Shown: in pieces, positions 1,570 through 64,000 of the stretch
How the letters are laid out: the number at the start of each line of letters is the position of its first letter
Numbering within the stretch: the stretch's first letter is position 1
NCBI RefSeq assembly: GCF_035594765.1
Contig: NC_085841.1
Span: 55,907,636 to 55,971,635, forward strand
DNA length: 64,000 bases
Direction: 5' to 3'
Source: Anolis carolinensis
Taxonomy: Eukaryota
Notes under the pieces: generated by a model
Databases searched by the model: none
Told to the model about the DNA's origin: nothing
What the model saw: the letters and a program-made list of their open reading frames with translations, nothing else
Translations under genes and position numbers: made by a program

Positions 1570-2619
1570 TTTTAATCTTCCACTTTCATTGCATGCGTTA
1601 TCTGATGGGCTATCCTCAATGCAGCTCATGTTGGATGTTTTTTCCTCTTCACCCCTCTCCCACAGTGCATCATCTTCAGATCCATCCAGAGGATTAGAAA
1701 TGCCAGGTTTTTAAAAAGCTTTTCACAACAATGTCCTGTGTGATGAGGTGCCAGCTCTTAATGGCCCATGTGCACATCAGTTCTAATTATGTGTGCTTCA
1801 TATTTCCAGCGGGTGTCAATTGGTGATCACCGCTCATTATCCATTCATTATACAAACAGCACGAATTGTCTTTAAAGGTCTTGTTCACTGAGACATCCAG
1901 TGGCAGCAAAATAGAGATATGAATAGCTACCCCTTGTGTTGTTCTCACAGAGAAGTTGCCTCACTTCCTTCACAACGTGACTTCGGAAACTGTCCGAAAC
2001 TAGCAGAGTCAGCAATTTCCATAGCGCACTTGGTCTTCTGTTCCACACAGTTTTAATCCAATCCTCCATGAGTTCTAAATCCATCCAACCTTTTATCTGC
2101 ACTCATACACGAATTCTACGAGAAAGCTGTACTCCCTTAGGAATTGTTTCCCTTTTTAAAATGATGTAAGGCGGTAACTTACTTTCATTTGCTATAACGG
2201 CAAGCATTAAGGTGCACCATAATTTCTCATGGTGACACTGGAGGACCCTTTTGGTGCAATAGTGCTGCTGCAAGGCATAACAAAGAAGACGGCAGTCTGA
2301 TCAACATTACCAGTTTGTAAAAGGGGGTATGGCGTTTCTTTGTGCATATGCAAGATAAAGTGATGAAAGCTTCCCACCTTGGTGTATACAGGTGGCAGCT
2401 TTTGGCTTAGTGTGGTTCTCCTTCGCACAGAAAGATTGTGTTGTCGCATGAACCTTATAACCCAACCACGACTTGCCTTAAACTGAGTTGGGAGAATGTT
2501 GTGTTTGTGGGCTACCTCCTGTGCTTTCACTTGCAACATTTCAGATGATACACTGCAGTCACTGTTGTACACATCCCTCACATACATTAACACATTACAC
2601 CTAATCTGTTGCTCAAGAG
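1570..2619 (-). mobile_element. Decayed pogo/Tigger-family transposase fossil (POGK-like)
   Basis: Fragments with CENP-B HTH (FKASRGWVIRFMRQHNLSVRRRTT) and DDE_1 motifs (GNVDQT, KGWMD, LVSDSFRSH); frameshifted; no TIRs found. Confidence 0.85.
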
Positions 2620-2753
2620 CAGTGGTCTCAACTTGTGGGTCCCCAGGTGTTTTGGCCTACAAATCCCAGAAATCCCTGCCAGTTTACCAGCTCTTGGTAT
2701 TTCTGGGAGTTGAAGGCCAACACATCTGGGGACACACAGGTTGAGAACCACTG
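2620..2753. mobile_element. hAT (Charlie-type) MITE
   Basis: TIR CAGTGGT(T)CTCAAC...GTTGAGAACCACTG; 8-bp TSD ctcaagag/ctcaggag. Confidence 0.85.
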
Positions 2754-2829
2754 CTCAGGAGTGATGTTATGTGATGGCTAACATTTTACAAATATTCTTC
2801 ACAAAAGTAATCAACTAATATGAATATCC

Positions 2830-3035
2830 CAAATTCACCAGAACCAATCTGATCTTGGAAAATAAACAGGGTAAGCTCTGGTTAGTACTTGGATGAGAGA
2901 TGAGTAACGAACACCATATTTCAGGGAAGTAACTAGCAAAATCACCTCTTGAGTATTTATTGCCTAAAAATATCCTATGAAATTCCATATTGCCATAAGT
3001 TGACAGACAACTTGAAGACACATAAACACAACAGA
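2830..3035 (+). mobile_element. 5S rRNA-derived SINE (5S-Sauria-like), decayed
   Basis: 5S-like head TCTGATCTTGGAAAATAAACAGGG...TGGTTAGTACTTGGATGAGAGA plus a SINE tail ending ACTTGAAGACACA. Confidence 0.65.
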
Positions 3036-3044
3036 AATGAAATA

Positions 3045-3367
3045 CAGTAGAGTCTCACTTATCCAAGCTAAACGGGCCAGCAGAAGCTTGGATAAGCGAA
3101 TATCTTGGATAATAAGGAGAGATTAAGGAAAAGTCTATTAAACAGCAAATTAGGTTATGATTTTACAAATTAAGCACCAAAACATCATGTTATACAACAA
3201 ATTTGACAGAAAAAGTAGTCCAATACGCAGTAATGTTATGTAGTAATTACTGTATTTATGAATTTAGCACCAAAATATCACGATATATTGAAAACATTGA
3301 CTACAAAAATGGCTTGGATTATCCAGAGGCTTGGATAAGCGAGGCTTGGATAAGTGAGACTCTACTG
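3045..3367. mobile_element. Tc1/mariner-superfamily MITE (TIR CAGTAGAGTCTCACTTATCCAA)
   Basis: Perfect 22+ bp TIRs with TA on both sides; five copies in the window. Confidence 0.9.
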
Positions 3368-5204: not shown

Positions 5205-6304
5205 TTTTTTAAAAAATTATTTATGATTTTAGAGTTACAGTAAAAGTGGGGGAACAATTGTAGCTGATAGGAAAGAAACCGAATATAGGGAAAACAATAA
5301 GATAAAAAGATAAAAAGTAGGGGAGAAATACAATAAAGGCATCTAGAGAGAGAAAAGGAACAAGAGGGAAACTTAAAAAACAAAAATAAACCTAACTAAA
5401 TGAAAAAAAAACCTAAGAAAAACCTAACAAAAAAACAGCAAAAACAAACAAAAATTGTTGCAACTTCCAGATCTTCTGCATTGCACGTCTAGTTTTCTTT
5501 GTACATTACCAGCATTGGAATTTTTACCTCATTAGTCCGTGGGATATTTTAGAACCAATTTCAATAAAGTTCTATTTTATCTTTCATCAAATAGAGTCTC
5601 AATTTATTCCAGTCTGTCATTTGCACTTGTGAGTTATTCTGTGACAATATTTGTGTCAGTAATTCCATGTTCCTGATATCTAGGATTCTCAAAATCCATT
5701 TTTCCATAGAGGGAATTTCTTGGGTCTTCCACAGTTGAGCTAAGCATATCCTTGTGGCCATTACTAAATAAACAAACAGCTTGTTCATGTTTTGGTCCAT
5801 ATGAAAGTCAGTAATTCCTAAAAGAAAATACTCTGGTTTGAGGTCAATTTTTTTTGTAATATTTTCTCCATCTTTTTGTGGACTTCATGCCAGAACCTTT
5901 TTACTTTTTTACACCTCTATCACATGTGTATGAAATATCCCTTATGTTTCCCACATTTCCAACATTTCCCATTACTTGTTCCTTTACTGAATCTCGCTAG
6001 ACTTTCCAGTGTAAGGTACCATCTATAAAACATCTTGTACCAATTTTCCTTCAGTTCGGCTGAGTATGTAAATTTTAGTTTCTTTTTCCATATCTCTTCC
6101 CACTCTGCCATGTTTATCGTGTGACCTACATCGCTAGCCCAACTAGGGAACCAAAGGAGAGTTTTACAGAAGATAAAAAGATAGGATTTGAAAAAAAGGA
6201 CACATGTTGGGACAAAATACCAAAGATAGAAACAAAACTTATAAAAATACTATATCAACAATTACTAGTATGGGAGATAGAAAAACAAGTCAAGGAGGTG
6301 ATGA
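5205..6304 (-). mobile_element. L1 element A: 3' fragment with 5' inversion (last 8 bp displaced to 10027-10034)
   Basis: Minus-strand ORF2 C-terminus (WASDVGHTINMAEWEEIW...CWKCGKHKGYFIHM), 3' UTR and A-tail. Plus-strand 6146-6304 encodes the immediately upstream ORF2 segment. 15-bp TSD actttttgtgtaatt at 5190-5204 and 10035-10049. Confidence 0.9.
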
Positions 6305-9300
6305 GGATTTGCAATATATACGCTCCGAATGGACCTAAAACAAAATTTGTAAATAATCTGAGAGAACAAATTTTAAAAACGGATGTGGAGCATATAATAA
6401 TCTTAGGGGATTTTAATGGAGTGATAGATCATGATCTAGATAAATCGAAAAAGAAAAATAGAAAAACTAAAGGAAAAATGGGCCAACTACCAAAAAACTT
6501 CCTAAATCTTAAAAAAGAACTGGACCTTCAAGATGTCTGGAGGAATAAGAATACAAATAAAAGAGACTTTACATACTACTCAAATAGACACGAATCATGG
6601 TCCAGGATCGATATGATCTGGACCTCAAACTCATTAACATCAAAAGTAGATAAGATAAATATATTACCAAGAGACAAATCAGACCATTGCCCCCTCGAAA
6701 TGATAATAAACTACAAAAGAAACCATTGGAGATGGAGATTAGATGACAACCTGATTAAATCAGAAAAAGCAATACTCGAAAACAGGAAACTAACAAAAGA
6801 ATTTTTTAATTTTAACGACAAAGAGAATGTAACAAAACAAACGATTTGGGACTCGTATAAGGCAGTAATGAGAGGATATTTCATACAACAGAAAGCCAGA
6901 GCCAACAAAGTTAGGAACTATAAAATAGAACAGATTAATAAGCAAATAGAAAATAAAGAAAAGATATTTAAACAACAACCTAAGAACCAAAAGATCAAGA
7001 AAGAAATAAACGATCTAAAGAAGGAAAAACATCACCTAGATTTGGAAAAAATAGCAAAATCATTGAAATATGTGAGACAAGATAATTTTGAAAACGCAAA
7101 CAAACCAGGGCCCTGGCTGGCAAGGAAGATAAGAAAGAAAAAACAGCAACAACATATAATAAAGATCAGAGACAAAGATAAGGAGTATACGACAGATGAA
7201 GAAATAAGAGAAGAATTTAGGAACTACTATAGCCAATTGTATAAGCAAAAAGAGGAAGATTTGGAAAAGATTACAAAATATTTAGGAGAACAAAAACTGG
7301 ACAAAATTACGGAAACAGAAAGGGAACATCTCAATAAAGAAATAACAGAAGAAGAAATTAAGAAAGCAATAAAAAATTTAAAACCTAACAAAGCACCGGG
7401 TCCAGACGGATTTACCGCAAGTTTCTACAAAGTTATGAAAGACGAGTTAATCCCATTTTTGAAAATACTAATGAACCAGGTATTGGAAAAAAACATTATT
7501 CCGGAATCGTGGAAGGAAGGAGATATTATCACAATTCACAAAGAAGATACAGATAAATCGGAGGTAAAAAACTACAGACCAATTACGCTATTAAATTTGG
7601 ACTACAAAATTTTTACGAACATATTGGCAAATCGATTCAAAAACTTCTTAACAACATGGATTGGGCCAGAGCAAAAAGGATTTCTCCCGGGAAGGCATAT
7701 GAAAGAAAATGTGAGAACTATAGTAGATGTAATAGAATTTTACGAAACACATCATCAAAAAGAATTGGCACTACTCTCGATCGACGCAGAGAAAGCATTC
7801 GACAACCTAAATTGGAGATTTATCAAATTACTATTTAAAGAAATTGATATAGGTTATCAATTTTACAATGCGATTGAAATGATATACACGGAGCAGAGGG
7901 CAAGAATTTTAGTAAATGGTCAATACACGAAAGAGATACCAATAAATAAGGGAACTCGCCAAGGATGCCCATTATCACCATTAATCTTTATCTTCGCAAT
8001 TGAAATCTTAATAAGAAATATCAGAAAGGACGATCAATTAAAAGGAACAAAAATAGAAAACTATGAATTCAAGATGAGGGCTTTTGCTGACGACCATATA
8101 TGTATTATTGAGAATCCGAAACACCAAATTCAAAAGTGGCTCGACCGTATAGAGGAATATGGATCAGTGGCAGGCTTTTATCTAAACAAAAAGAAAACAA
8201 AAATTATGACAAAAAACATACCAAAGAAAAGACAAGAGGAAATAGAGAAAGTGGCAAACATCCAAATAATACCTAAAATAAAATACTTAGGAATTTGGTT
8301 AACAGCAAAAAATGCACACCTACTGAAAAATAATTACCAAATGAAATGGAACGAAATTAAAAAAGATTTACAGAACTGGAAAAACCTGAAAATCTCTATT
8401 TTAGGACGTATATCAATAATAAAAATGAATGTCTTACCAAAACTGTTATATTTGTTCCAAAATCTTCCAATAATAAGGAACAATAAACTTTTTATGGAAT
8501 GGCAAAGGGAAATCACAAAATTTATTTGGAAGGGAAAAAAGGCAAGAATAAATTATACAATAATGACAGATGATAAAAGAAGAGGGGGATTTGGACTACC
8601 GAACTTAAAATTATATTATGAATCTTGTGCATTGGCATGGGTTAAGGATTGGGCAACCCTAGAAAAAAACAGTATGCTAGCATTGGAGGGCTTTGATTTG
8701 AGGAGGGGATGGCATAGCTATCTCTGGTACGGTAAAAGATCAGTAGAGAAAAACTTCGGAAATCACTTTATCAGATCCTCATTAATAAAAACTTGGGAAA
8801 AATATAAGGGAAGAATATATATGAAGACACCCCTATGGATTTCACCTTTGGAAGCTAATCAGAAAAAATTTTCGGATTGGACAAAATGGCCAAAATACAA
8901 AGAAATATTAAGAAAAAAGGATGGGCAATTTCAACTAAAACAACATGAGGAAATAAGACAAAAATACAACAAAATGTCATGGTTTCAGTATGCCCAGCTA
9001 AAAGAACAATTTGGGAAAGATAAAAAATTAGGATTTAATGAGACTGAAAATTTCTGGGATACCATGATGCAAAATAACAAGAAGGAAATTGCGAGAATAT
9101 ACAAGAAGTTACTAGAATGGTCTACAGAGATAGAATATGTAAAAATATGTGCCACAAAATGGGCAAAGAATATTGGACGTTCAATTATGATGTCAGAATG
9201 GGAAGCAATATGGAATATAAAACAAAAATATACGTACGCCTCAGATTTACAGGAAAACTGGCTCAAAATGTTCCATAGATGGCACATCACACCAAAAAAG

Positions 9301-10013
9301 ATAGCAACCATGTATAAAAACACAGACAATAAATGCTGGAAATGTAAAAAGCAAGAAGGGTCATACTTTCATATCTGGTGGACATGTTCGGAAACAAAAT
9401 CATTTTGGAAAGCAGTACATGAAGAAACACAGAAAATACTACAAAAATCATTCCCAATGAAGCCAGAGTTTTATTTACTTGGGTTGACAGAGAGTATAAT
9501 GAAATTGAACTCAAATGAGGACAAAATATTTACATACGCAGCGACAGCAGCAAGAATAACCTTTGCAAAATATTGGAAACAAAGAGAAATACCAACAAAT
9601 CAACATTGGTTGGAGAAATTGAATGAGATATATGATATGGACAAATTAACATATCTAATGAAAATAAACAGGGGTAATACAATAAAATCAACTAACTGGG
9701 AAAAATATGTAGAATACAAGGAAAAGGCAAAGGAGAAATAAGCAAAGAAGAATCCGAGGACACTCACAATGACCAAAACTAGTCCAATAAATGTAAAAAA
9801 GGAAGAAATGGAACAAAACCTAGCCCACAAAGAATAGAAAGCGGAAGGACTTCTGTATCCCCTCCCTCCCTTCCCCCCCTTCCCTCTTCCTTCCCCTTTT
9901 TTTTTTCTTTACCTCTTTTACCCTTTTCACCAACCCCTGTGAACCATCTCCATTTTTATTTTTTACTGTACTGTATGTATGTGTAAGAAAATCTGAATAA
10001 AAATTTATTTAAA
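6305..10013 (+). mobile_element. L1 element B, 5'-truncated, young
   Basis: Uninterrupted ORF2, pyrimidine-rich 3' UTR, AATAAA near 9996; 13-bp TSD aaggaggtgatga at 6292-6304 and 10014-10026. Confidence 0.95.
6307..9741 (+). CDS. L1 ORF2 (partial APE endonuclease + reverse transcriptase + CCHC), N-terminus missing
   Basis: Motifs NIYAPN, GDFN, SRID, SDH, KAPGPDG, DAEKAFD, GTRQGCPLSP, FADD, YLG, CWKC-x8-H-x4-C; 1144 codons without a stop. Confidence 0.9.
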   Translation: MCNIYAPNGPKTKFVNNLREQILKTDVEHIIILGDFNGVIDHDLDKSKKKNRKTKGKMGQLPKNFLNLKKELDLQDVWRNKNTNKRDFTYYSNRHESWSRIDMIWTSNSLTSKVDKINILPRDKSDHCPLEMIINYKRNHWRWRLDDNLIKSEKAILENRKLTKEFFNFNDKENVTKQTIWDSYKAVMRGYFIQQKARANKVRNYKIEQINKQIENKEKIFKQQPKNQKIKKEINDLKKEKHHLDLEKIAKSLKYVRQDNFENANKPGPWLARKIRKKKQQQHIIKIRDKDKEYTTDEEIREEFRNYYSQLYKQKEEDLEKITKYLGEQKLDKITETEREHLNKEITEEEIKKAIKNLKPNKAPGPDGFTASFYKVMKDELIPFLKILMNQVLEKNIIPESWKEGDIITIHKEDTDKSEVKNYRPITLLNLDYKIFTNILANRFKNFLTTWIGPEQKGFLPGRHMKENVRTIVDVIEFYETHHQKELALLSIDAEKAFDNLNWRFIKLLFKEIDIGYQFYNAIEMIYTEQRARILVNGQYTKEIPINKGTRQGCPLSPLIFIFAIEILIRNIRKDDQLKGTKIENYEFKMRAFADDHICIIENPKHQIQKWLDRIEEYGSVAGFYLNKKKTKIMTKNIPKKRQEEIEKVANIQIIPKIKYLGIWLTAKNAHLLKNNYQMKWNEIKKDLQNWKNLKISILGRISIIKMNVLPKLLYLFQNLPIIRNNKLFMEWQREITKFIWKGKKARINYTIMTDDKRRGGFGLPNLKLYYESCALAWVKDWATLEKNSMLALEGFDLRRGWHSYLWYGKRSVEKNFGNHFIRSSLIKTWEKYKGRIYMKTPLWISPLEANQKKFSDWTKWPKYKEILRKKDGQFQLKQHEEIRQKYNKMSWFQYAQLKEQFGKDKKLGFNETENFWDTMMQNNKKEIARIYKKLLEWSTEIEYVKICATKWAKNIGRSIMMSEWEAIWNIKQKYTYASDLQENWLKMFHRWHITPKKIATMYKNTDNKCWKCKKQEGSYFHIWWTCSETKSFWKAVHEETQKILQKSFPMKPEFYLLGLTESIMKLNSNEDKIFTYAATAARITFAKYWKQREIPTNQHWLEKLNEIYDMDKLTYLMKINRGNTIKSTNWEKYVEYKEKAKEK

Positions 10014-11998: not shown

Positions 11999-13460
11999 TA
12001 CAACATTGGGTAGCTTTCCAAGTGTTTGCTGGATTATGTAATAATGAATGGAAGAGAGCCAAGTCATATACTGGTTACTTATGGGAATAGGACACTGATA
12101 CCAAGGTTCAGATCCCTGCTAATGGGCGTTGTTGTCCAGAACCATCCACATATTAAAGAAAACTAAGGTAGGGTGTAAGTAGTCAAAGTTAAGTGTCCTT
12201 GTCCCCATTCAGTTTATTTTACCAAATTCACTTCAATTACTGAAAATCAAGCACTTAAAATGAGACAATTTAAAAGAGCTATCATCAATATTCCAAGGAA
12301 GTTTCTTGTTGAAACAAACATATACCTAGAAAAACATCAGATATAAGAATTAAGAGCATGATTATATACCTTTGATTTTAAGGGAAGTCCCAAAAGCTGA
12401 AATTCTAAACAATAAACATCAAAATGCAAAAGCCCAAGAGCTGTTCCTGTTCCTCTGTTGCCTTCCCTGCCCCCAGATATCTCAACAATTTTAGGCGTAA
12501 CATAAAAAGAAAAAAGAAAACTCGGGAGGAATTCTTATTGCTGGAGACACACAATTTCAAATGCACAACTGGCTTCAGGTTATGCCTAATATTGGGTATT
12601 ATGACCTGTGATGCAATACAAAAGACTTGGCCGTGTTGCTGCCTACATTTTAATGGACTTAATCTTCCAAATGCTGACAAATTACTGCTCCAGGTCATTT
12701 AAAATCACATTTCTAATGCAATAATCCTATTTGCATTACATTGGCTTGGAATAAAATGATTAGGTGGCTGTGATTTTGCACTACAAAATTAAGTCCCTCT
12801 ACATTCTAGCTGTACGCATCCACAAATTAAAGTTGTGGGCAAAAATGGAATTCCATTATCCTGCCACTTGCCAAGATATCAGGAAGGCTATATTATTGTG
12901 CTGTCTTGGCTACTAATACTACTCTAAAGTAGGCACAAGCTAGCAAAGTCCTATTTCGTACATAAGCCGCAGGGCTTTTTTCATTATTAATCACATTAGT
13001 CAAGTATTTGACAACTGAACACTTTGAAAATGGAAAGCCTAAATTAAGAATATGTGAGCAAAAATGACAGAAAGCTTCAAAAATGTGTAATGACTTGCCA
13101 TCCATAATGCACATTGTCAAACACAGAAAAGAACAGACCAACTTCATCTCTCCTGCTTCCATCCATGGAATATAGCTCGAGCACTCACAGCTTAGTACTA
13201 AAGCTTGGAATATATACATTTTCGACTACATCTCCCAGAATTCTACAAGTAGCATGGCCAGCTGAAACATGGGCTTTGTTAATTTTCCCTTCACAACAGT
13301 AAAGGTGCTCTCTCTCGACATGCAAACTGGTTTGATTAAATACACAGCCCAATGAAGAAACATTATTGGTGTCTTGGGGTTTAAGCCTTAACTGGGGTTA
13401 TTTGGGGTACCGATTCAGAAAATTACATTGGATACACTGCATCAGCTCTAGTATCTTATA

Positions 13461-13537
13461 CAGGGTGTTTGAAAAAGAACTCCCTAGTTTTAAGTTAAAA
13501 CACATTAAAACTAGGGAGTTCTTTTTCAGACACCCTG
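13461..13537. mobile_element. 77-bp hairpin Tc1/mariner MITE
   Basis: 33-bp near-perfect inverted repeat CAGGGTGTTTGAAAAAGAACTCCCTAGTTTTAA; TA on both sides. Confidence 0.85.
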
Positions 13538-13949
13538 TATATGGTTACCATGGTTTTCTATGGACAAGCAGATGGCAACTGGTATATAGCATCTGTATAT
13601 CAAAAACTGATTTAGAAAATTGCATTGGATAGACTGCATCAGCTCTAGTTTCTTATATATCAGTGATTCCCAACATTTTTTTTGACCAGGGACCACTTGA
13701 CCAGGGACCATTTTGACCAGGGACCACTCTCCAACATTAGTACCAAAAGGGTTATGAATCAGTTTTTGGTCAACTTTAGATTTGGCTTGGTTATTTGGGG
13801 TGCTGATTCAGAAAATTGCATTGGATAGACCACATCAAGCGCTAGTTTCAGATACAGATCATATGCCATCCAGTAGTCATCATCTGCTTGCCCACAAAAA
13901 AAACATATTAAATAAGCCTCAGCACTAAAAGAGGGTTTCGCAAGACTGT

Positions 13950-22309: not shown

Positions 22310-22436
22310 CAGGCCAGCACAACCTGCGGCCCTCCAGGTGTTTGGGCCTCCAACTCCCAGAAGCTCTAGCCAACTGTTCAGGAATTCTGGGAGCTGAAGT
22401 CATAACACCTGGAGGGCCACAAACTGTGCAGGCCTG
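22310..22436. mobile_element. hAT MITE inserted into a short Harbinger-like MITE (about 22248-22446)
   Basis: CAGGCC...GGCCTG termini; TSD gtgtagac/gtatagac. Confidence 0.8.
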
Positions 22437-36816: not shown

Positions 36817-37950
36817 AGGAATCCAAATCCCTGCTTTTTAACCACTGTACTAACATAAGTAAGCTCCTATTTTATTTGGGTAGGTATTTGTGAGGTTGGG
36901 TTGAGCTTTTTATGCTGCAGGAGAAAGACTTCCTCTATACATTAGAATTAGTGTGGAAAGGAAGCCATTATTGCTTGAATATTGCAAGCTGATCCACACA
37001 CACAAGTGGATAACCACAAGATGACAGGAACTGCCTGGAGCTTTCTTGAGAGACCTTCAACCTCTCGCTAAAATAGGCAAAATGCTCTTCCTGCTAGAAT
37101 GTACAAAATTCTAATTGCCCAATTCCCTTCTCTAAAGGTGAGAAAGGTACAAAAAGGAGTGACTGTTGAATTAGTCAGCTGGAATACCTTTTCTGGCAAG
37201 AAAGGCTAAAGGGGGAATTGCCAAAATGCTCTTTAGCAAAAGGCGGTAGTAGAGGCAACACAGTAGTGGTTTGAATGCTGAACTAGGCCTCCGGGAGAGG
37301 AAGATTTGAATTATGCCATGGAAGCCTGGGAAGTAATCCTGAGCAAGTCACATTATCTCAGCCTCAGAGGAAGACAATGGCAAACCCCCAGGGGAAAACA
37401 TTATGAGAGAGCTGCCACAAGTTTGTTGTTTTGAACAACAGTGAGACCAGATATTTCTCTTTCTTGCAGTGTTACAACTCAATATGAGACTAATTGGAAG
37501 TAAGCTCAGGTACTGGGGTGTTGTTGGTGTATTTAAGGGGGGAAATTCTACATAAAACTTTTTATTATGTTACACACTTCATTGCCGGAAGATAGTTTTT
37601 TTTCTTTGAAGTTTAATGAGATTAATACAGAACATGTGGTTTGTTAAAAACTTTGTAGTCCTTGAACTAAGCAGAGCAGTGGTTGGAAATTCTTGGCTGA
37701 CCAGATAGCATTGGACTCCCATCATCAGGAACCAATAAAAATGAATATTCATGGGTGAGTAGAAGACCAAGAACATCTGCAGAGTCACAGGTTCCACAAT
37801 TCTGAAACTGATTATCTTCTTCCAAGGCAATATTAAGTACTCATGATGAGTTTTCACACCTACACAAGTTACAATACTGTAATTCCCCCTGAACTGCCAT
37901 GGCTGCATCCTCTGGAATCTTGTGGTTTGTCATTTGGTGAAGCACTAGAA

Positions 37951-38085
37951 CAGTGGTTCTCAGCCTGGGGTCCCTAGATGTTTTTGGCCTTCAACTCCCA
38001 GAAATCCTAACAGCTGGTAAACTGGCTGGGATTTCTGGGAGTTGTAGGCCAAAAACATCTGGGGACTCCAGGTTGAGAACCACTG
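37951..38085. mobile_element. hAT MITE (same family as 2620-2753)
   Basis: CAGTGGTTCTCA...TGAGAACCACTG; TSD cactagaa/cactagag. Confidence 0.88.
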
Positions 38086-40721
38086 CACTAGAGCTCTCTG
38101 ACTGAAAGTTCTAGATGAGCCTTCCTCAGCAGAAAGTCTAGAGTTCAACTAGAGCCATTGCCATTCAAATGGAAATGCCACAGATATCTTATGGGGAGAG
38201 GGAAGTTCTTCAAAACAGAATGCTAGATTAGATGTGAAATTTAATGTGAGCAGGTTTGCATAATATATAATGCAACAATAGAGGTACAGAGTGTATTTCA
38301 AAGGAAGGACATCTCCTTGTTGCTCTCGGGGCCATGGCATCGTGATCATCACACTCTTTAAAGGGTAAATAGCACCACTCAGTTGTATACTGTTTGGGAA
38401 GCAACCAGTGTTCACCTGGCTCACAGAAGACCATCTGTTCATTGATTGTTCAGATGCATTACATAACAATGCTAACAAAAACTGGCCAGCAGGTTTCCAT
38501 TTCTATACACATGACTGCTACTCACTCACTCAGAAAACCACAGATTGGCTGCACAGCAGTGATTCAGAACTGACTTCCGAATTTTGGCACGTAAAAGGAT
38601 CTTTGTTTGATCATTCATGCCCCTTATTCTGGATTATATCCATGATCAGGTGGGATCATGGATACAATAAGATAATTGGAATGGGTGGACCTTGGATCTG
38701 ATCTATCAGCATTCATCTTAGGTATTGTTGCTATGGAAATATTGATAAAATTCAGTTGGATCCATTAGCAGGTAGATCTCAATTGAAAGGGCTAATGCAA
38801 AGACTACTGGCAGGAAATGAGGAGGAGCAATTTTCACACATTTCCTCTCTAAAACATCAGTGCTGAAGGGGGTCCCTGAAACCTGAAAAGAAGGCATTGG
38901 GAAAACATACGGGACTGGAGAGGAGCAGTGTGATCAGATAGTATTGTCTCAGTGTATAACCAGATAATCCTCCTTTTGGAAGCATTTCCAAAGGGGTGAT
39001 TATAGTTATGTGATTTTAAGTCAATACCATTCTATAGGGACCCTATTTTAGAGTTTTCTTCATCAGACTTATAGACGAGTTTTGTCATTGCTTTGCTTTA
39101 AGACTGAAAATGCTTGACTTTCCCAAGGTGGAGTGATGGGCTTCCATAGCTAAGCAAGGGCTTGAATCCTAGTATCCTGGAGCCCTAGTTCAACTTGTCA
39201 GCCATTTCTTTTCTAAAATAACTGTTGTTGTATATCTTCTAGTAGTTTCTAAGTTTTGGCAACACAAAGGCCAACTTATCACAGCACGATTCTTAGCACG
39301 ATTTGTTTGGCAGGGGTTGCCTTTGCCTTCCTCTGAAACTGAAAGAGTGTGACTTGCCCATCATCACTCAATGGGTTTCCATGGCTGAATGAGGATTCGA
39401 ACCCTGGTATCCAAAGTCCAATATTTAAACCACTACACCACACTAGTTTCCATCCCAAAATGATAGCCGTGCTTATTTTTTGCAAGAAAAAACAGAGTCA
39501 TGTTACACCTAAACACATTTATTATAGATTGCAATTTTTCAGACTACAGCTTCCTTCCATGGGTGGCTTCTGTTGGATCCAACCTATTGTGTTTATCCTC
39601 TTTTAATAGAAGTGATCACAATGACAAGCCACAAAAGTGCAGAGGGTTAGAGATGCATTACTATTATTGTCTGCTTCCTGTTTGAACACGGGCGCCGTGA
39701 GCAGCGGCAGGCGTGTGCCATGTCGTACGCCACGGTATATAACTTTTAATTTTCCAGGATCAGCAGTTCTCAAGACAAGTAGGCAGGCTGGCTTTGTTCT
39801 TCATTGGTCCTTTAATTAACACACTGTTAGATGTCCCTGCCGAACTGCATCTGCTGTGTTAGGGATCGTCAGACTGTGTGCAACGGTATGCCTACCCTGG
39901 GAGATCAGGCATATGAGGCTCAAAGGGAGGCGGGCAACAGATTGGCCCACATGCTTGTAAATTCCAATTTGCAGCCCACCGCCTTGTTACAGGCCAGGAA
40001 GCTGAGGAGCGGCAACATCTTGGTGTCTGTTACCCTCCAAAGTTTGCTGACAAGGAACAGTAAGGATGCGTGACACCAATTCAAACATGGTCAATGAGGC
40101 AATATTTCACAGCTGGCTGGTGGAGCGGCACGTTCCACAAAAGACCATTTAAATATCAGATGGTTGCCACCATTCAGAAAAGACAAATGCTTACGGGCAA
40201 GTGCAGCAGCTGTCTGTTTACCAAAAAAGCAAAAAGGGAAGGAAGACAGGTAGTAAAATATAGAAATGCAGCTACACTTCCTAGACACTAGCTGGTATAA
40301 AACTGAGTCGCAGGGGAGCTATGTAGCTATGTGGCATAGTGAACTAGGATTTCTTTGGCTGAAAAAAGCTGGGATCATTTGACACCTGTTCAGCTTACCA
40401 GGGGAACCATGACAAGAGCTACATCCAATGTCTCTGGCCAGGAGCACTTTCACTTGTCACTTTATTTAACCTTCTGCAGGGCTGTGATAATGCCTTCAAT
40501 GAGGCCCAGACAGAACCATCTTTTATAATGTGGCAGCTGCCTGAAGCTGCCTCTGGATGGAGTCTTCTCTAACACCTGGTCATTGCCTCTCGCACCATTT
40601 GCAGTGTTCACATATCTGTGGAAACTCTAGCCACAAAATACAACTTGCAGACATGGAGGTTTATTCCACATGCACGCGAAAATCTGTGACGTACATGTTG
40701 GTGGCAATAAACCAAAGGTGT

Positions 40722-44077: not shown

Positions 44078-46790
44078 GGTTGCTTACCTGTAACCATGTT
44101 TCTTTGAGTGTACTCTGTGAATTCACACTAATGGAGAAGGCTGCGCCTGCACAGGCTCCAACGGAAACTCTTCCAAGCTAAAGTTTGAATTTTGGCGGTA
44201 ACCACACCCCTCTCCCCGCAGGGCATATATGGCACCCCTGGGCATCTGTGAATGCACATGAATGGAGACTACCAAGCTGAGGTCCAGGATGGTGGGACAG
44301 AGCAAACCCGACAATGGGTTGAATGTCCAAACCCAATATTTATTTGGTAAAAAAGGAAATAAGGCACAATGCAGAACAAGGTCAAAACATTGACCCAGTG
44401 CATACAACGCAAGGCATGACTGTGTGAAAATGCATTTCCCCGCATCATGGCCACCGGTATGGGCAGGAGATAAGTGCAATTAGAAATAAAAATATCTCCA
44501 ACAGGAGAAACAAGGCGTAACCCATCCCTAAAATAGGACAAAAAGGTAAACGGATAACTTACATTGCAGTAGGGGGACAGAAGAAGAGCGATATAAGTAA
44601 TGCTTCAATACAGTATAAACACATAAACATCGAAAAGTGGCATAGAAACAAAACATTTCAAACAAATAATAACACTTGGTGAGGTTTCTCTTTCTTTCTA
44701 CCCCCCTCCCTTTTTTTTTGAGAAGGTAAGTCCCCCGTAAGGGGAACAAGGCCCCTTAAGACAGGCAGGAAGACAAGAACGATCTGGCGAAATCCAAGTC
44801 CTTTTGGGCCTAAGAGTCCATTCTATAGTGGGAGACAAATGTTAAGGGGTTTGACTAGATCGCTGCCCTGCATATAGAGTCGAGAGGGATGCCCCTGAGA
44901 AAGGTAGTCGAGTTAGAGAGGCCCCTCATCGATCTTGGGCGGACCAACGGAGGAGGGCGCTTAGCCAGCTGGTAAGCAAGTTCAATGGCTTGCACAATCC
45001 AGTGAGAGAGCCTCTGGGAGGAAACTGGGTTACCCAGTTTGTCCGGGGCATAAGTGACAAAGAGTCTCGGCGTCTTGCGCGTTGCTCTAATCCTATCCCT
45101 ATAAAAAAGAAGAGCTCTCCTAACATCTAGTAGGTGAAGTCTCCGTTCCAGTGGAGACGAAGGGTTAGGAAAGAAAGCCAAGAGCACAATGTCTTAGTTA
45201 AGGTGAAAAGTAGAGACCACCTTAGGAAGAAAGGTGATGTCCGGACGGAGGATGGCCTGATCGTGATGGAAGCGAAGATAAGGTTCGTCCACTCTAAGAG
45301 CCGCCAGTTCAGAGGGCCTACAGGCCGAAGTAACTGCAACCAAGAAAGCTACCTTCCATGAAAGCAAGTCAGGTCTTCTGAGGCTAGCGATTCGAAAGGG
45401 GAGGACGTGAGTTGGGACAACACGAGCTCAAGGCTCCAACAGGGTGTCGGTGGCTGCGCTGGTGGGCAGAGGTTATTGTAGCCCCTCAAAAAGGTTTTTA
45501 TGAGATAGTCTGCAAACAGGGAAGGCTGGCCATGTCCAAGACAGGGCAGCCAGATAGGATTTCATAGAGGCCAGAGACAGCTTTTGCTTTGCGAGGGTAA
45601 AGAGGAAGTCCAGAACCACCGGTATCTGGGTTGGGAAAGAGTCGATGTTTCGGGACCAAAGAAAGGTACAAAATCGAGAGATCTTGTAGGTGTAGGCCTT
45701 GGTCGTAGCAGGCTTGTGGGCTGCGTGGAGAACCGCCTGGAGGTTTGGATGGAGGGAGCTCAGGCGAGAATCCTCCATGCAGTGAGATGGAGAGAAGAGA
45801 TGTCCAGGTGAAGAATTTGCCCGTTCTGCCTGGTCAAGAGGTGAAGGAGAGACGGAAGAGAGCGAAAAGTCCCCCTGGAGAGATGAGCAAGAGCCGGATA
45901 CCACGGTTGGCACGGCCAAGCTGGAGCTATTAGGATCGCCGTAGCTGAGGCAAGGCAGAGCCTCTCCAACACCTTTGGTATCAGAGGGAACGGAGCGAAC
46001 AGGTAGAGAGGTTCCATCGACCAGTCCAGAAGAAAGGCATCCCCGAGGCACCTGGGAAATGAAGCCGGAGAAAGTCTCGCTCCGTATCGAGGTAGCTGCG
46101 CGTTTTGAGGAGAAGCGAAGAGGTCTAGGGTCGGCCATCCCCAGTCATGAAAGAGAGAGTGGAGAGTGTCGGGGTCGAGCTGCCACTCGTGGGAGGAGCT
46201 CGTCATCCTGCTCAGAGCGTTGGCTAGGCCGTTTTGGAGGCTTGGGAGGTAGAGTGCCACTATAGAGACGTTGTGGGCTATGCACCATTGCCAGATCTGG
46301 AGAGAAAAGAGACATCAGCTTTCTTGAACCCGTGCCACCCTGTTTGTTGATGTAGAACATCGCCACTGTGTTGTCTGTTTGAATCTGGACAGTCTTGTGA
46401 AGTATCAAGCGGGCAAAAGCTTTCAGGGCCTTGAAAATGGTGAGGAGTTCTAGAAAATTTATGTGGTGGCCCCTCTCGAAGGGAGACCAGAGGTCTTGAA
46501 TTGTGAGGCCATCCATGTGAGCTCCCCAGGCGTAGTTCGATGAGTCGGTGGTTATGGTGACCGACGGGAGAGCACGGTGGAATGGTAGTCCTTTGCAGAC
46601 ATTGGCTCGAGACTTCCACCAGAGAAGGGACCGGTGGACGTGAGCTGGTATCAAGAGGAACCTCGAACTGGAGTGGCGGAATGGCTTGAAAATGTCTATG
46701 AACAACCTTTGTAGGGGTCTGAGGCGCAGTCTGGCAAAGGGGGTGACCAGAACTGTGGACGCCATGTGACCGAGAAGAACCTGGATGGTG
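44078..46790 (-). mobile_element. DIRS1-like tyrosine-recombinase retrotransposon, 5'-truncated, decayed
   Basis: RNase H (ITTDSS, HINFLEL, QTDN, YINKQGGT), methyltransferase-like domain (DLFAS, DAF, APAWPCQPWYP), overlapping YR ORF (LDVRRAL, RLFV, RSMR, FVSHYR); repeated terminal/ICR-like motif at 44115-44137 and 44246-44268. Confidence 0.93.
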
Positions 46791-47686
46791 CTCTGAGCGA
46801 CTTACAATTTAAAATATCATTCCACAATATAAAAACATTCAACATAAAAACATTCAACAGTGACTATATGGCAAATTAGATCTGATTTACTTAAATGCAC
46901 AACCTTTTAACTTTTAGTAATCAATGCTTTTGTAGTCAGTGTTTTAAATTCATTGTGATATTTTGGTGGTAAATTTGTAAATACAATACTTACTACATAG
47001 CATTACTGCGCATGAAACTACTTTTTCTGTCAAATTTTTGCATAAAATGATGTTTTGGTGCTTAATTTGTATAATGATTACCTAATTTGATGTTTAATCG
47101 GCTTTTCCTGAATCCCTTCTTATTATCCAACATATTCACTTATCCAACGTTCTGCCGGTCTGTTTATGTTGGATAAGTGAGACTCTACTGTATATTGATA
47201 ATCTTATATTATCTGCTTAGAACTGGTTTATATGAGGCCCCTTCTTCACAGCTGTATAAAATGCACATTGAAGTGGATTATATGGCAGTGTGGAGTCAAG
47301 ATAATCCAGTGCAAAGCAGATAATATAAGATTATAAATGGGTTATATAACTGTGTGGAAGGGCCTTGAGTCTACACTGCCATATAATCCAGTGCAAATTA
47401 GATAATCTGTGGAAAGGCCTAAGTGAGGCCTAACTCTGCCTGTCTCCTGGGCTGAGTGGGTTGCTAGGAGACCAAGTGGGTGGAGCTTAGCCTTCTAACT
47501 GGCAGCAATTGGGTAAAAACAATTATTCCTCTCCCTCTAATTAGGACTTTATTTTTCTTTTCTTTTTGTTGTATCAACCTAGAGGTGTGGATGATGGGTT
47601 GTGTTGTCAAATTTCGAGGTTGTGGGGCCTGTAGTTTTGTTGTTTTGTCGGTCGCCGGGATTCCATCACTCTTTTATATATATAGA
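46791..47686 (-). mobile_element. Non-autonomous Helitron, 5' part, with MITE-derived internal segments
   Basis: Minus strand starts A|TCTATATATATAAAAG, a typical Helitron 5' TC end; contains a mariner MITE half (about 46900-47190) and Harbinger-like pieces; no CTAG 3' end seen. Confidence 0.65.
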
Positions 47687-48244
47687 TATACAAAATATTT
47701 TGGAGAAGTAGCGACTTTCTATATATTGGTATGACAACGAGGCCCCTAAAAATTAGAATGTATAAACACCGCTCCCGTATTAAGAATGGAAATACTGACA
47801 CCACCGTATACACACACTTTAGGGAGAAAACACCTTGAAGTCATTGTTTCAAATTTTGTGCTTTGGAAAAATTACACACCAAACCTCATTTAGATATGAA
47901 GAAACTACTTTCTGAATCTTTAAATTCCAAACTCTGGTTCCTCAGGGCCTTAACAACAAATTTGATTTCACTTGTTAGCTTTAACATGTACTTAAGGTCG
48001 ACTAGGATTATGAGCAATTGCTCACCATAGAATACCCTACAGCAGAGTCAGTGATTGCCTAATGAAATGTAAGTCATGAGAACATTATTTTGTATTCAGT
48101 TATGTATTGATTTAATGTTAATATAGCCCAAAAATTGGGGTGCTTTTGTATATCTATTTTATGTATGTTGTTGTTCTTTTTATACATGTAAATATAGTGC
48201 CAGAGATTTATCTTCTACTGGAATACTAAGCTATATCTAAAGGT

Positions 48245-48351
48245 ACAGAGAAGAATCAACTCCCTGAAGAAGGTGTTCCAAACACCGAAACAAGGAATGC
48301 AAACCGAGATACCTTGTTGTTACGTTGGTCACCGTGTAGAACTTTTCTCTG
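48245..48351 (+). ncRNA. Type I hammerhead ribozyme-like motif
   Basis: CTGAAGA 48264-70; stem II GGTGTT/AACACC; GAAA 48287-90; stem III CAAGG/CCTTG; GUU triplet 48316-18; interrupted stem I. Confidence 0.55.
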
Positions 48352-48593
48352 ACACAACCACAATCTCGGATGCCACATATGGTCCTTCAAAATACCTATA
48401 AGTGACCTTTTAAATCACTATGAACCAAGAAATATTTTAGAAATAGACCTCGCAAGTACCATTTTGCAGACAGCTCAAACAGCACATTAACAAACAGCCA
48501 AGTGTGCTGAGGAAATACCAGGAAATTAATAGTGTACTAGCAAACAGGGTTGTAGAAATAATAATAATAATAAAAATAATAATAATAAATAAA

Positions 48594-58648: not shown

Positions 58649-59332
58649 TATCTTAAATTGTTGATGTTCCTTCTCCCATTTTTCATGCCTACTTCCTACA
58701 AGCTTTATGTATATGTTCAGCATACTAGTTAAATAAAGAGGGTGGTAAAATGCAGCCTCGTCTGACCTTAGCAATGGTAAACCTTTTTGTGTGTCCTAAC
58801 AGCAGCCTCTTGCAATGAACAATACTTCCACAAAGAAACTATATTCTGTAAAACTTAATTATTTGTATTTGTAAACAGAAAAATACCATTATAGTTACAT
58901 AAAACATATTAAATATCTGTAGATGGCAATGTTTTTGTTTTGTGCCCTCGTGCTTTACCTGAATGTGGAAAACACTACCTTTATTGCTCAGGAAATATGT
59001 ACCAATAGAATATTAATAAGTACATATTGATTTTAAGTGAGGAGAGTATAGGATTTATGAAAGCTGCCATTATTGGCAAAAAAATTATAAAACAGCTTCT
59101 GTTCCCGTCAATAAATATGCTTTCTTTGATATCTAGAGACAACTTCCCAACAACAGCAAAAAAAAAAAAAAAAAAACCCAAAAAACCCCAATGAAATAGT
59201 CACATCTGGTGAAAGATGTGAGCTGCTCACTACGGAAAACAAAAAAAACCTTAGTACAATACTCTATGTAGACCAACGCAGGAATTGAATGAACTAGAAT
59301 TCAACGAGAATATAGCGTCTCTGCAACCTAAT

Positions 59333-59418
59333 TGTCTTTTAAAAAAACCTGAAGAAGGGCTCGACCCGAAACAAAGAAAAAAAACCCGGGACTCTTTGTC
59401 GTGCATCCTTTTAAGACA
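59333..59418 (+). ncRNA. Type I hammerhead ribozyme candidate
   Basis: CTGAAGA 59349-55; stem II GGG/CCC; GAAA 59368-71; 7-bp stem III ACAAAGA/TCTTTGT; GUC triplet 59398-59400; interrupted stem I closed by TGTCTT/AAGACA. Confidence 0.65.
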
Positions 59419-60148
59419 CAACAAACATTTCTCATATCAGAGACTTCCTTCATTTCTACTTACCAACCTCCTCCTCATATGCAGAAAAGCAAAAGAAGAC
59501 AACCACTTGCAGCATACTGCACAACTATAATATTGTTATAGAAAGTCGCAAAAGAGTGAATTGAACTCTAACTATTTTGTTACTTATACATATATGAGTA
59601 AAAGCTTAACCCTGTACTATATGCTTTAAGCAGTAGAGTGTATTAAACTCAAACTGTTTTGCTATATGTACACATACTTGTGAGAATTTAATCCTGTAAT
59701 ATCTATTTTAGAAATACTACACTGCTGCGTTTAATATTTTGTTGGATATATATATGCATAATATTACTGTGATTTAACAGACACAACCTTGTTTACCTCC
59801 TCAAAAACTGACCTAAGTACATCCAAATCTGTTTTTGTCAGATCATTGGTTGTAAGATATTGTTTTTACAATGAAACTAGACCATACCCATATTCAAATA
59901 CAACTTATATTTTTTGTTTTTAAATGGAAAACAGGTTAGATGTTCCACCTGGCATTCCATTGTAACTTTTAACCTATCTTCTTTTCCTGTGATATTCTAT
60001 CTCTGGAACACACAGTGGCTGTTATGGATACCAAGAATACAGCTCCTGAAAGAGATGGTACTATCATCTTAAGGAGCGAAGCTCTAGGACTTATTGACAT
60101 GGGTCAAAAGATCCATACTCGCTATGAATGTGCTACTGGCAGTCTTCA

Positions 60149-60879: not shown

Positions 60880-63303
60880 CTGCTTACTGCTGGACCCCTG
60901 TTGGACGGCCTTGCTAGGCTGGAGAGACCTGTTGGGCTATTTGGTTGCTGCTGGAGGCTGTTCGATCGGTTGCAGCCTAAGGGGCTGGTTGGTTTGCGAG
61001 GCCAGAGTGCGGAGTAGGAGCGGAGCCCTGAGGCGACGGCAGTGGTGGTCAGTAGAGAGGGCCGCTCTGCGGAGCTGGCGGGCTGGCCCACTCGACTGCT
61101 ATTAGAACTTTTGGCGAGGGCCGTAGGGGGATAACATTAACAACAAACTCCCAGCCGTGGTGGCTTGGAGGTTCAGCCTCCAGATATCCCTCTTTTAACT
61201 TAATATCAGAATAATTCAAGGTTACACCAGTACTGAGTGTCTGTCCACAGAATCTACAGAGTCCCATTTATTGTGTACACATTGCTGCCATAATAACTGT
61301 AAAGCCTGGTGTAAAGGCCTAATAACGACTAAGGCTCTCTCAGGCAGGGGGGAATCTGTTTTATCCCACCACTGCCACCACTGAGTAAAGGAGGGTAGCC
61401 TAGAAGACCCAATTAATAACGAATAGATGTTCCAAATAATAAAAGATAACTGCCACCGATTAGTGGAAATGCAGCCACCACTGTGTAGAGAGACACCTTT
61501 AGATTATAAAAGTACTCAGCCACCCAATAGCTCAGAGGAAGCCTTTTACTTTATTCGGTGTTAAAATGGTAGCACAATCGTGCTGAGGGAGTCTATAGAC
61601 GACAGAGGCTTTGATGTTGAAAGAACAATATCAAGTTTATTCAGGCACAAGCTTGGTGGTTACAAAAGATGTTTCACTTAGAGGTATTCTTATTAACAGT
61701 TACAATACTAGAATGAGATGAATCGAACTCTCTAAAGTATCACTTCTTTTACTTAAAGTAGTTAAAACTTCTTCCTCTGCTTTTAAACTGTTACTTCAAT
61801 GGATCTCTGAGAGTCCAGCTGGGATTGGTTCCCAAAGTCTGAAACTTGGACTATCCAGTGACTTCAAACCACAGTCACCCCCGTAATATACTATCACAGA
61901 TTCTCTGTGCCTTTCCAGGACACAGACTATATTAAATAAGTCACCAAACTTATTTAAAACCGACTCAAAATGAACAATTGAGTCTCCTTGATCCCATCAA
62001 CCTGGAATCAATCTTACCTGTGCCTCATCAGAGCACAGACTGAGGCTTCACTTTTAAAAAACCTCTTCACTTCTCCTCCCCTCGGCAGATGGCTCTCCCC
62101 ACATCTCCATGGCAACCGTCTCAGAGGAGAGCCACTAAATGGCTGCCGCCGTCTGATACCTACCTAACCAAACCACAAGCACATAGTTAAACACAACAAA
62201 CATGAATACAAAACTCATACTTCATTACACCTGGTCCTCTTGTTCGACCTATTAAGTTTATCACCCTAAGTGGTCCTAATTGGCACCATATAAAATCTAT
62301 ATTGTACCATACTGAATTAATTTTATTATCATCATCCCTTCTGCCTGCCTTGCACTTTAGTCATCTGACCCAATACCTATGCTGCTCATGCACCCTCTGC
62401 ACTTTACAACTGCACTTGCACTTTGTATTGTTGGAGGGGGGTGGGGGAGGCTGGAGTATTATGAGGACTGCGGGGCAGAAGGAGGGAATGGGTATGAAAG
62501 GATGCCAATTTATAATAGAGAAATAATAAATCAAATAACATCGTCCGGACCAGGGGAAGTGGAAGAGAGAGGACAGCATGCCAGGGGAGGGGAGTGTTCC
62601 GATGGGTGGGGAGCCCCTATTGAGGTGGTGTCGGGGAGGGGGAGATACGGGAAAGGGAGAACAATAAACTCAATTCGGCCTAGGGTTTTTAGTAGGACAT
62701 TAATAGTTCCAAAACGGTCTCCTGACATAGCTAATCTGCGTAGCCAGGATGGCAGCCCCTCCAGATTAAAGGTGGTGCTGTTTAATGCCAGGTCAGTGAA
62801 CGGGAAGTCATCTTTAATCCAAGATCTCATCTTGGATGAACATGTAGACCTGGCATGTATTACAGAGACCAGGCTAGACAAGATGGGAGGAGTTAATCTC
62901 ACCCAGCTCTGCCCACCAGGTTACTCCGTACAGCACCAGCCTAAATCTGGAGGGAGGGGAGGTGGGGTCGCGGTGGTCTATAAGGATTCCATCCCCCTGA
63001 CCAGGTGCCCCGTCCCACAGTCGACCATGTTTGAATGTGTCCACTTGAGGGTGGGAGACCGGAACAGATTAGGAATTCTGTTAGTGTACCGACCACCCCG
63101 CTGCACCACAGTCTCCCTGCCTGAGGTGGTCTCGGGCCTGGCATTGGAGTCCCAGCAGCTCATAGTGCTGGGGGACTTCAATGTCCATGCTGAGACTAAC
63201 CTCTCAGGTGCAGCTCAGGACTTCATGGCCGCCATGGCAACCATGGGGCTGTCCCAATTAGCAAAAGGGCTCTACCCACAGTGCGGGACACACACTAGAC
63301 TTA
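60880..63303 (+). mobile_element. L2 5' region: probable 5' UTR plus APE endonuclease ORF (62379-63317)
   Basis: LFNARSV, LACITET, GRGGGVAVVYK, LVYRPP and LGDFNVH motifs; assigning 60880-62380 to the 5' UTR is inference. Confidence 0.7.
61579..62229 (-). mobile_element. Probable solo LTR inside the L2 5' region
   Basis: Minus strand starts TGTAATGAAG, with AATAAA about 60 bp from the other end; no TSD found. Confidence 0.5.
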
Positions 63304-63304
63304 T

Positions 63305-64000
63305 CATAGAATCATAGAATAGTAGAGTTGGAAGAGACCTCATGGGCCATCCAGTCCAACCCCCTGCCAAGAAACAGGAAATCGCATTCAAAGCACCCCC
63401 GACAGATGGCCATTCAGCCGCTGCTTAAAAGCCTCCATAGAAGGAGCCTCAACCACAGTCCGGGGGAAAGAGTACCACTGCCGAACAGCCCTCACAGTGA
63501 GGAAATTCTTCCTGATGTTCAGGTGGAATCTCCTTTCCTGTAGTTTGAAGCCATTGTTCCGCGTCCTAGTCTGCAGGGCAGCAGAAAACAAGCTTGCTCC
63601 CTCCTCCCTATGACTTCCCTTCACGTATTTTTACATGACTATCATGTCTCCTCTCAGCCTTCTCTTCTGCAGGATAAACATGGCTAGTTCTTTAAGCCGC
63701 TCCTCATAGGGCTTGTTCTCCAGACCCTTGATCATTTTAATTGCCCTCCTCTGGACGCTTTCCAGCTTGTCAACATCTCCCTTCAAACTGCGGTGCCTAG
63801 AATTGGACACAGTATTCCAGGTGTGGTCTGACCAAGGCAAAATAGAGGGGGAGAATGACTTCCCTGGATCTAGATGCTATACCCCTATTTATGCAGGCCA
63901 GAATACCATTGGCTTTTTTAGCTGCCACATCACATTGTAGGCTCATGTTTAACTTGTTGTCCACAAGGACTCCAAGATCCTTTTCACACGTACTGCTGTC
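63305..64000 (-). mobile_element. Young CR1 3' region, running off the window
   Basis: [20 protein letters not shown]...RRLRGDMI and RRFHLNIRKNFLTVRAV; CATAGAAT tail. Confidence 0.95.

Follow-up and report, generated by a model that had tools for sequence, protein, structure and literature searches.

A predicted type I hammerhead ribozyme with a long stem III in the 3' pseudo-LTR of a truncated Neptune-type Penelope-like element of Anolis carolinensis

The motif at 48245-48351 (+) of the window, by which the whole 64,000-nt stretch of Anolis carolinensis DNA analysed here is meant, is a genuine hammerhead motif of type I; its carrier is a truncated Penelope-like element (PLE) of Neptune type, in whose 3' pseudo-LTR it lies. 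The evidence lies in the carrier, in an architecture common to 15 sequence families, in an invariant CCCGGG palindrome and in tandem duplications that start at the predicted cut. It is probable that in active parents of the element the type I hammerhead of the Neptune pseudo-LTR cuts tandem transcripts and pairs through CCCGGG; the copy in the window has decayed. The copy itself is a decayed witness, and the weight is carried by the palindrome at the family level and by the footprint of the duplications. The function of PLE hammerheads has been called unclear (PMC8557442), and whether they cut in vivo, and for what purpose, is a current question. If the reading proposed here is true, cleaved RNA is copied during PLE transposition in vivo, and the genome has recorded it.

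All parts of the motif lie on the (+) strand. The core C3-U4-G5-A6-A7-G8-A9 (CUGAAGA, 48264-48270) and the extra A that follows it (48271) were recognized both from the sequence and by a descriptor scan. Stem II, with 6 bp (GGUGUU/AACACC, 48272-48277/48281-48286) and a CCA loop, spans 48272-48286 as a whole, and the second part of the core, G12-A13-A14-A15.1 (GAAA), is read from the sequence at 48287-48290. Stem-loop III occupies 48291-48316 and has a long loop; five contiguous pairs (48291-48295/48312-48316), an A-A mismatch and two further pairs amount to seven of eight over 48291-48298/48309-48316. The GUU triplet is located at 48316-48318, which by hammerhead numbering places the predicted cut at 48318/48319. 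On the side of stem I, position 2.1 (C48263) pairs with G48319 (1.1), and the sequence together with a constrained fold gives a middle helix, AUCAAC/GUUGGU (48255-48260/48324-48329), and a distal helix, CAGAGAAGA/UUUUCUCUG (48246-48254/48343-48351). Thus every part named in the original prediction, namely CUGAAGA-A, stem II, GAAA, stem III with seven of eight pairs, GUU and stem I, is present as it had been stated, and the type I core (C3UGANGA9, G12AAA, U16.1, H17) is complete. When both strands of the window were scanned with a descriptor that specified a stem II of at least 3 bp, a stem III of at least 5 bp and the 2.1-1.1 pair, matches were obtained at 48264 and 59349 only. The mean over 100 dinucleotide shuffles of the window was 0.02 matches and none reached two. 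No hammerhead model was among the 47 matches of an Rfam scan of the window at E<=5. The hammerhead fold of the copy lies 6.5 kcal/mol above its minimum-energy fold, as compared with 6.4-10.0 kcal/mol in its siblings and 4.9-10.0 kcal/mol over all eight natural copies that were folded; the gap calculated by this folding model is not peculiar to the copy.

The carrier, denoted family A, is represented in the window by a fragment at 47711-48417 (+) that comprises the end of an ORF and most of the 3' pseudo-LTR and is shortened at both ends. Its identity to loci L064 and L065 is 82-84% over 727-751 nt; these loci extend upstream of the matched part into the linker and thumb, and family A siblings reach roughly 190-220 nt further on the 3' side. 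Within the window, the protein remains of family A are confined to the end of the endonuclease, the C-terminal portion of a GIY-YIG domain, disrupted by a stop and a frameshift (47713-47994, +; tblastn E 7e-15 against the endonuclease of family B, described below). Longer copies such as L069 and L065 possess the end of the reverse transcriptase (RT), the thumb, the endonuclease and a zinc-finger-like linker of the CxxCxxC type, which reads CRRCDCC in L065 and CGHCDVC in L062. The motif is a dispersed repeat with at least 45 matches in the 1.85-Gb genome, as estimated from the scoring of 40 of 67 candidates. The 5' ends of the copies are ragged, with an inverted piece frequently found on the 5' side; at the 48245-48351 locus itself no tandem array was found. 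Related families display, in the list of genome matches, partial tandem copies 3387-3388 nt apart and also inverted partners, and such a tandem, inverted and 5'-truncated layout is usual for Penelope-like elements. Several features of the Neptune clade are present: pseudo-LTRs, partial tandems, inverted 5'-truncated segments, and an RT with C-terminal endonuclease and linker. Neptune and Nematis are defined by a C-terminal endonuclease with a CX2-5CxxC zinc-finger-like linker (PMC8557442), and Neptune is preferred here, as the clade with such a linker that has been reported from vertebrates (bioRxiv 10.64898/2026.07.22.740005). The carrier is designated Neptune-type on the basis of its predicted domains and linker. 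In full Neptune units the RT-endonuclease frame is preceded by another one, some 250-280 aa long (the two frames lie at 3782-3021 and 3084-826 (-) in L211, and at 3836-3000 and 2961-808 (-) in L210). In L211 the upstream and RT-endonuclease frames overlap in different phases where a run of U precedes GC-rich sequence, possibly the site of a programmed frameshift, of a kind mentioned for PLEs in the legend of Fig. 1 of PMC8557442.

The second match of the descriptor is a sister hammerhead at 59349-59401 (+) with an intact core, a GUC triplet, a predicted cut at 59400/59401 and CCCGGG at 59385-59390 (+). It is located in a pseudo-LTR fragment (59221-59802, +) of another family of Neptune type (family B), with an identity of 83-95% to L032-L060; L036 and L040 of this family run upstream into RT and GIY-YIG, and the long copies match RVT_1 at E 9e-11 and Pfam GIY-YIG at E 3.6e-6. 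With 40 of 48 candidates scored, family B has at least 43 genome matches. Among 30 of its copies, the core is kept in 26 and the hexamer in 24, and the copy at 59349 keeps both. The original prediction had regarded the two motifs of the window as members of a structurally conserved group with a long stem III, and each indeed belongs to a dispersed family. At 59221-59291 the window copy lacks about 125 nt between the end of the ORF and the ribozyme that are present in L036, L040, L043 and L045; several siblings have the same shorter form. In L046, 106 nt of the family B pseudo-LTR have been amplified in tandem to 12 units or more (1867-3139). Other features of the window are a 1220-aa frame with APE endonuclease and RT (6079-9741, +), L1-like and apparently intact over the stretch, the APE endonuclease frame of another LINE (62361-63317, +), and frames (45473-46808, -) with weak similarity to RNase H-like and integrase SAM-like domains that are likely the remains of a DIRS-type retrotransposon. 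Four fold-back repeats (37943-38093, 2626-2727, 22328-22418 and 13454-13544) remained below threshold against microRNA families and are likely short inverted-repeat transposons.

Genome-wide, the pattern of core, GAAAC and CCCGGG was matched 549 times, against 14 times for the reversed control pattern. The fetched loci contained 86 distinct ribozymes in 15 clusters, with the hexamer exact in 64 and with at most one mismatch in 82, some of these loci having been picked by the hexamer pattern. A sample independent of the RNA was taken from the protein side, by selecting 90 of 150 listed endonuclease hits (the top 30 and 60 spread lower). In 68 of these 90 loci, which are family copies and not independent of one another, a hammerhead was called 214-770 nt downstream of the ORF, one call (L152) being a miscall. 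Loop III contained exact CCCGGG in 53 of the 68 calls and a form with one mismatch in 12, and the hexamer was absent in three. The remaining 22 loci were, where a motif was visible, damaged or truncated copies, and no minimal stem III was seen among them. The endonucleases of 12 families are 45-86% identical (median 57%). It can be observed in one natural copy per family (n = 15) that stem III has 4-6 contiguous pairs, to which A15.1-U16.1 adds in all families, and that loop III has 14-21 nt; a minimum of four pairs is part of the definition, which shuffles of the downstream bases satisfy in 0.4-7% of trials. The hexamer lies near the 3' side of the loop, usually flanked by A, and its end is 6-8 nt from U16.1 in all 15 families. 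A hexamer in this position recalls retroviral kissing loops.

The families differ in their helices in a manner that preserves pairing. Pair 15.3-16.3 is A-U in nine, U-A in five and G-U in one of the 15 families, and pair 15.4-16.4 is A-U in eight and G-C in seven. In the covariation alignment of 13 sequences, which consisted of 12 of the 15 representatives and the 48245-48351 copy, 99% of cells were paired and 10 cells were altered on both sides, and none of 500 shuffles matched either value. Type I topology, with stems II and III closed and stem I open, is therefore backed at the family level by compensatory changes, and the core, extra A and topology that had been described as shared by the two motifs extend to all 15 sequence families. 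The core, G10.1 (a G that was part of the search pattern), A15.1-U16.1, C15.2-G16.2 and H17 are retained by all 15 families even as the stems turn over; the extra base between A9 and 10.1 is present across families, and stem II is often short (2-6 bp). A change of U4 has become fixed in two families, to A in L182, L174 and L189 and to C in L158, L178 and L150. In family F2 (L079-L083, at about 2576) a 15-nt duplication at the start of the core has produced two CUGAAGA boxes per ribozyme. The long interrupted stem I of the original prediction is present in the window copy, where its distal helix was equalled in 33 of 300 shuffles and is not significant; as a trait defining the group it was rejected, since distal stem I exceeds shuffles in only three of the 15 family representatives and in the 59349 copy. 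The sequence GACACAAC, proposed as a shared downstream signal, was found in one of the 15 representatives and was likewise discarded. What the original prediction had not recognized is the carrier, a Neptune-type pseudo-LTR, and CCCGGG, the most conserved feature outside the core. Loop II and distal stem I vary across families, and no conserved contact between loops I and II is visible. Several partners for the hexamer were considered and rejected: a pseudoknot had no consistent partner in the 40 nt upstream, in stem-loop II or in the 55 nt downstream across the 15 families, and competition with stem II fails where that stem is without G and C runs. A pattern scan of metagenomes returned four matches (G+C 0.51-0.65) with no stems recognizable by eye and no element protein, which were attributed to chance.

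The proposed mechanism would begin with tandem elements, whose transcript would carry two ribozymes separated by about 3.4 kb. Each would cut after its GUH triplet, so that a unit-length RNA with its 5' end at G1.1 would be freed, and this RNA, linear or circular, would serve as the template for target-primed reverse transcription, a step already proposed (PMC4209133). In the least certain step, the palindrome would join two stem-loops III, by kissing or as a strand-swapped double hammerhead, and so unite the cut sites. Because the hammerhead fold lies 4.9-10.0 kcal/mol above the minimum, protein, tertiary contacts or pairing would be needed; help from an element protein, as for the PAc element (PMC11167929), or pairing is probably required for the fold to form. 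In repeat hammerheads, palindromic loops III are known to pair into a double hammerhead (PMC4209133; PMC3088659, legend of Fig. S8). A different account, which we hold to be possible though the lesser candidate, is that the stable stem III permits cutting as a monomer and that CCCGGG is an RNA site for a Neptune protein, or a promoter or endonuclease signal in DNA. The contiguous stem III pairs and A15.1-U16.1 found in every family agree with it, as do the monomeric cleavage of those fungal PLE hammerheads whose helix III is large (PMC4209133) and the protein assistance of the PAc ribozyme (PMC11167929). The hexamer is invariant in sequence, mostly A-flanked and never replaced by another palindrome, as a signal would be, and no covariation separates pairing from signal; however, a homodimer palindrome is likewise locked against single changes, so that invariance suits pairing equally. 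The DNA version is further opposed by the constant 6-8 nt to U16.1, which ties the hexamer to the RNA fold. Predicted dimer energies follow trivially from the self-complementarity of the hexamer, and a non-palindromic permutation equals or beats CCCGGG in five of the 15 families (F3, F7, F8, F13 and F14), the representative of F9 in this comparison having a decayed hexamer. The hexamer holds a mutable CpG and yet persists in all families. Pairing of two stem-loops III, rated somewhat better than even, is favoured over a protein or DNA signal, and the likely candidate role of the palindrome, as judged from the sequences, is to pair two ribozymes. In any case, a stable stem III whose loop bears an invariant palindrome would be a natural system in which to separate monomer from dimer cleavage.

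Cutting itself appears to have left a trace in the DNA. Tandem duplications whose unit begins at G1.1, that is at +1, were found with lengths of 96 nt in L253, 97 nt in L158 and 22 nt in family F2, and further ones of 11 and 13 nt in two more families. In L074, a relative of the window copy, a period-9 duplication has its left edge at +1, and the window copy carries at 48319-48336 (+) a probable relic of a 9-nt tandem duplication that begins at the predicted cut, as suggested by the family A alignment. Duplications of about 50 nt in L155 and L147 and of 92 nt in family F8, also starting at +1, were recognized by eye. In the 140 ribozyme neighbourhoods searched, 33 duplication events were counted, of which five start exactly at +1 (P about 1e-7). 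Six start within -1 to +3, an interval chosen after examples had been viewed, compared with 0.6 expected (P 2e-5). With only the 21 downstream edges counted, the values are 5e-7 for exactly +1 and 1e-4 for -1 to +3. This test covers the fetched loci, with events collapsed by a crude family tag and one control offset. The genome was also scanned for post-cut sequence preceded by the wrong base. Six loci of subfamily F5a were returned, three of them substitutions; in the others a five-unit 23-nt array begins at +1 (L260), the direct part begins at +1 behind an inverted piece (L259), or a single G was added at the predicted cut (L257). Subfamily F5b returned L253 again and nothing else, and the control offset one locus, a substitution. 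No +1 junction was found in family A (two loci returned, both GUA variants) or in family B (one locus, a substitution).

The +1 duplications are most simply read as the work of an RT that started downstream of the ribozyme, at times reached the 5' end of a cleaved RNA, left it there and continued on another template. They are likely a footprint of cleavage in vivo, and those in six families would be a DNA record of cleaved RNA being reverse-transcribed. An edge at +1 would not be explicable by selection, because the first copy stays complete when a tandem duplication starts within the ribozyme. A description of cut-site duplications, or of a long loop III bearing CCCGGG, was not encountered in the portions of the literature examined. 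It is unlikely that the hammerheads are instead passengers, or structures retained for some other use such as protein binding, translation or promoter activity, with cleavage irrelevant to transposition and the +1 duplications caused by pausing or slippage of RT at the base of stem I. This account draws on Naiad elements, which spread without hammerheads, and on the suggestion that hammerheads are parasites of PLEs (PMC8557442), as well as on the Poseidon element PAc, which inserts in vitro without cleavage and for which no reads end at the cut (PMC11167929). The fixed changes of U4 are also in its favour, U4C being known to reduce hammerhead activity in vitro (PMC3088659). Against it, the set of core positions listed above is kept in 15 of 15 families despite the turnover of stems, and an enzyme travelling along the RNA from 3' to 5' would run into stem I several bases before reaching +1, whereas the five edges fall exactly at +1. 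Cleavage followed by copying remains the preferred reading of the duplications. A bolder version of it, put forward tentatively, is that these ribozymes form a distinct hammerhead class, in which CCCGGG would act like a retroviral dimer-initiation signal that docks the two ribozymes flanking one element for concerted cutting and perhaps re-joining, and in which the +1 duplications would be the first genomic record of the copying of cleaved RNA in vivo.

The copy at 48245-48351 has lost part of this equipment. Position 2.2 is C instead of the A found in 27 of 28 aligned family A copies; two of the three core-proximal stem I pairs are gone, so that one pair (C48263-G48319) remains, compared with 2-4 in five folded siblings. 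In the family A alignment the palindrome of loop III has decayed from CCCGGG to ACCGAG (48303-48308, +). CCCGGG is kept in eight of the 28 copies, with a single CpG-type change in 12 more. The predicted gain from dimerization of stem-loop III is -3.2 kcal/mol, as against -6.3 to -14.3 kcal/mol in the family representatives. Because the palindrome and two of the three core-adjacent stem I pairs are gone, the ribozyme of this copy, as read from its sequence, is probably weak or dead, and the copy is most likely a decaying passenger. That it should instead be an active ribozyme with its own function at the locus is highly improbable. The core is intact, as are stems II and III, a state found in only 12 of the 28 family A copies. 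Contigs from four sequencing runs presumed to be RNA lie over parts of the stretch, the motif copy included, a coverage that is uninformative on ends, strand and cleavage. The lost palindrome and stem I pairs, the last 190-220 nt missing from the pseudo-LTR, a divergence of 8-20% from siblings that resembles neutral decay, and surroundings in which no host gene was identified all speak against such a role. A chance match to a short motif, a negligible prospect for which the lack of an Rfam hammerhead match and a fold that is not the minimum-energy one could be adduced, is refuted by the shuffles, the pattern control, the fixed place downstream of the endonuclease and the covariation.

Hammerheads in the pseudo-LTRs of metazoan PLEs have already been described as minimal type I ribozymes, or min-HHR (Cervera and de la Pena 2014, PMC4209133). 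The Neptune ribozymes share with them the type I topology, the pseudo-LTR location, the extra base between A9 and 10.1, G10.1-C11.1 and a short helix I; in both, no tertiary contact is clear, a genome holds many sequence families and a palindromic element lies at helix III. In the 56 min-HHR motifs of Fig. S3 of that source, helix III has a few bases at most, whereas in the Neptune families it has 4-6 pairs and a loop of 14-21 nt, of which only the inner CCCGGG is palindromic; a helix III as short as in min-HHR, reduced to its core pairs or to a very small palindromic hairpin, was found in none of the 15 families. PAc (Poseidon_Ac; Frangieh et al. 2024, PMC11167929) is likewise a reptile PLE with a hammerhead in its pseudo-LTR and with the RT start downstream of the ribozyme. 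It belongs to the Poseidon clade and is described with stems I and II only and with no ends at the cut in vivo, in contrast to the Neptune duplications that start there. Moreover, its ORF starts inside the ribozyme, whereas the first ATG of L211 is about 170 nt beyond the cut. The hammerheads of endonuclease-less fungal and protist PLEs share type I topology, a stable helix III and the lack of a recognizable tertiary contact, but their elements are telomeric and without endonuclease, and no conserved loop palindrome is described for them in the accessible part of PMC4209133. Double hammerheads of the newt satellite, ASBVd and mosquito repeats resemble the present ones in having a palindromic loop III that permits pairing (PMC6155905, PMC3088659). 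They pair because their helix III is too short; the Neptune helix III can form alone, and pairing would therefore take the form of loop-loop contact or of an exchange of strands. Non-LTR retrozymes also carry a type I hammerhead derived from PLE pseudo-LTRs (bioRxiv 10.64898/2026.07.22.740005), but they are non-coding tandem arrays, whereas the 48245-48351 motif is a dispersed copy with the remains of an ORF upstream and no tandem array at its locus. In the published vertebrate examples, to the extent that these sources describe them, stem III is minimal, and a long stem III with a CCCGGG loop is what differs in the 15 families.
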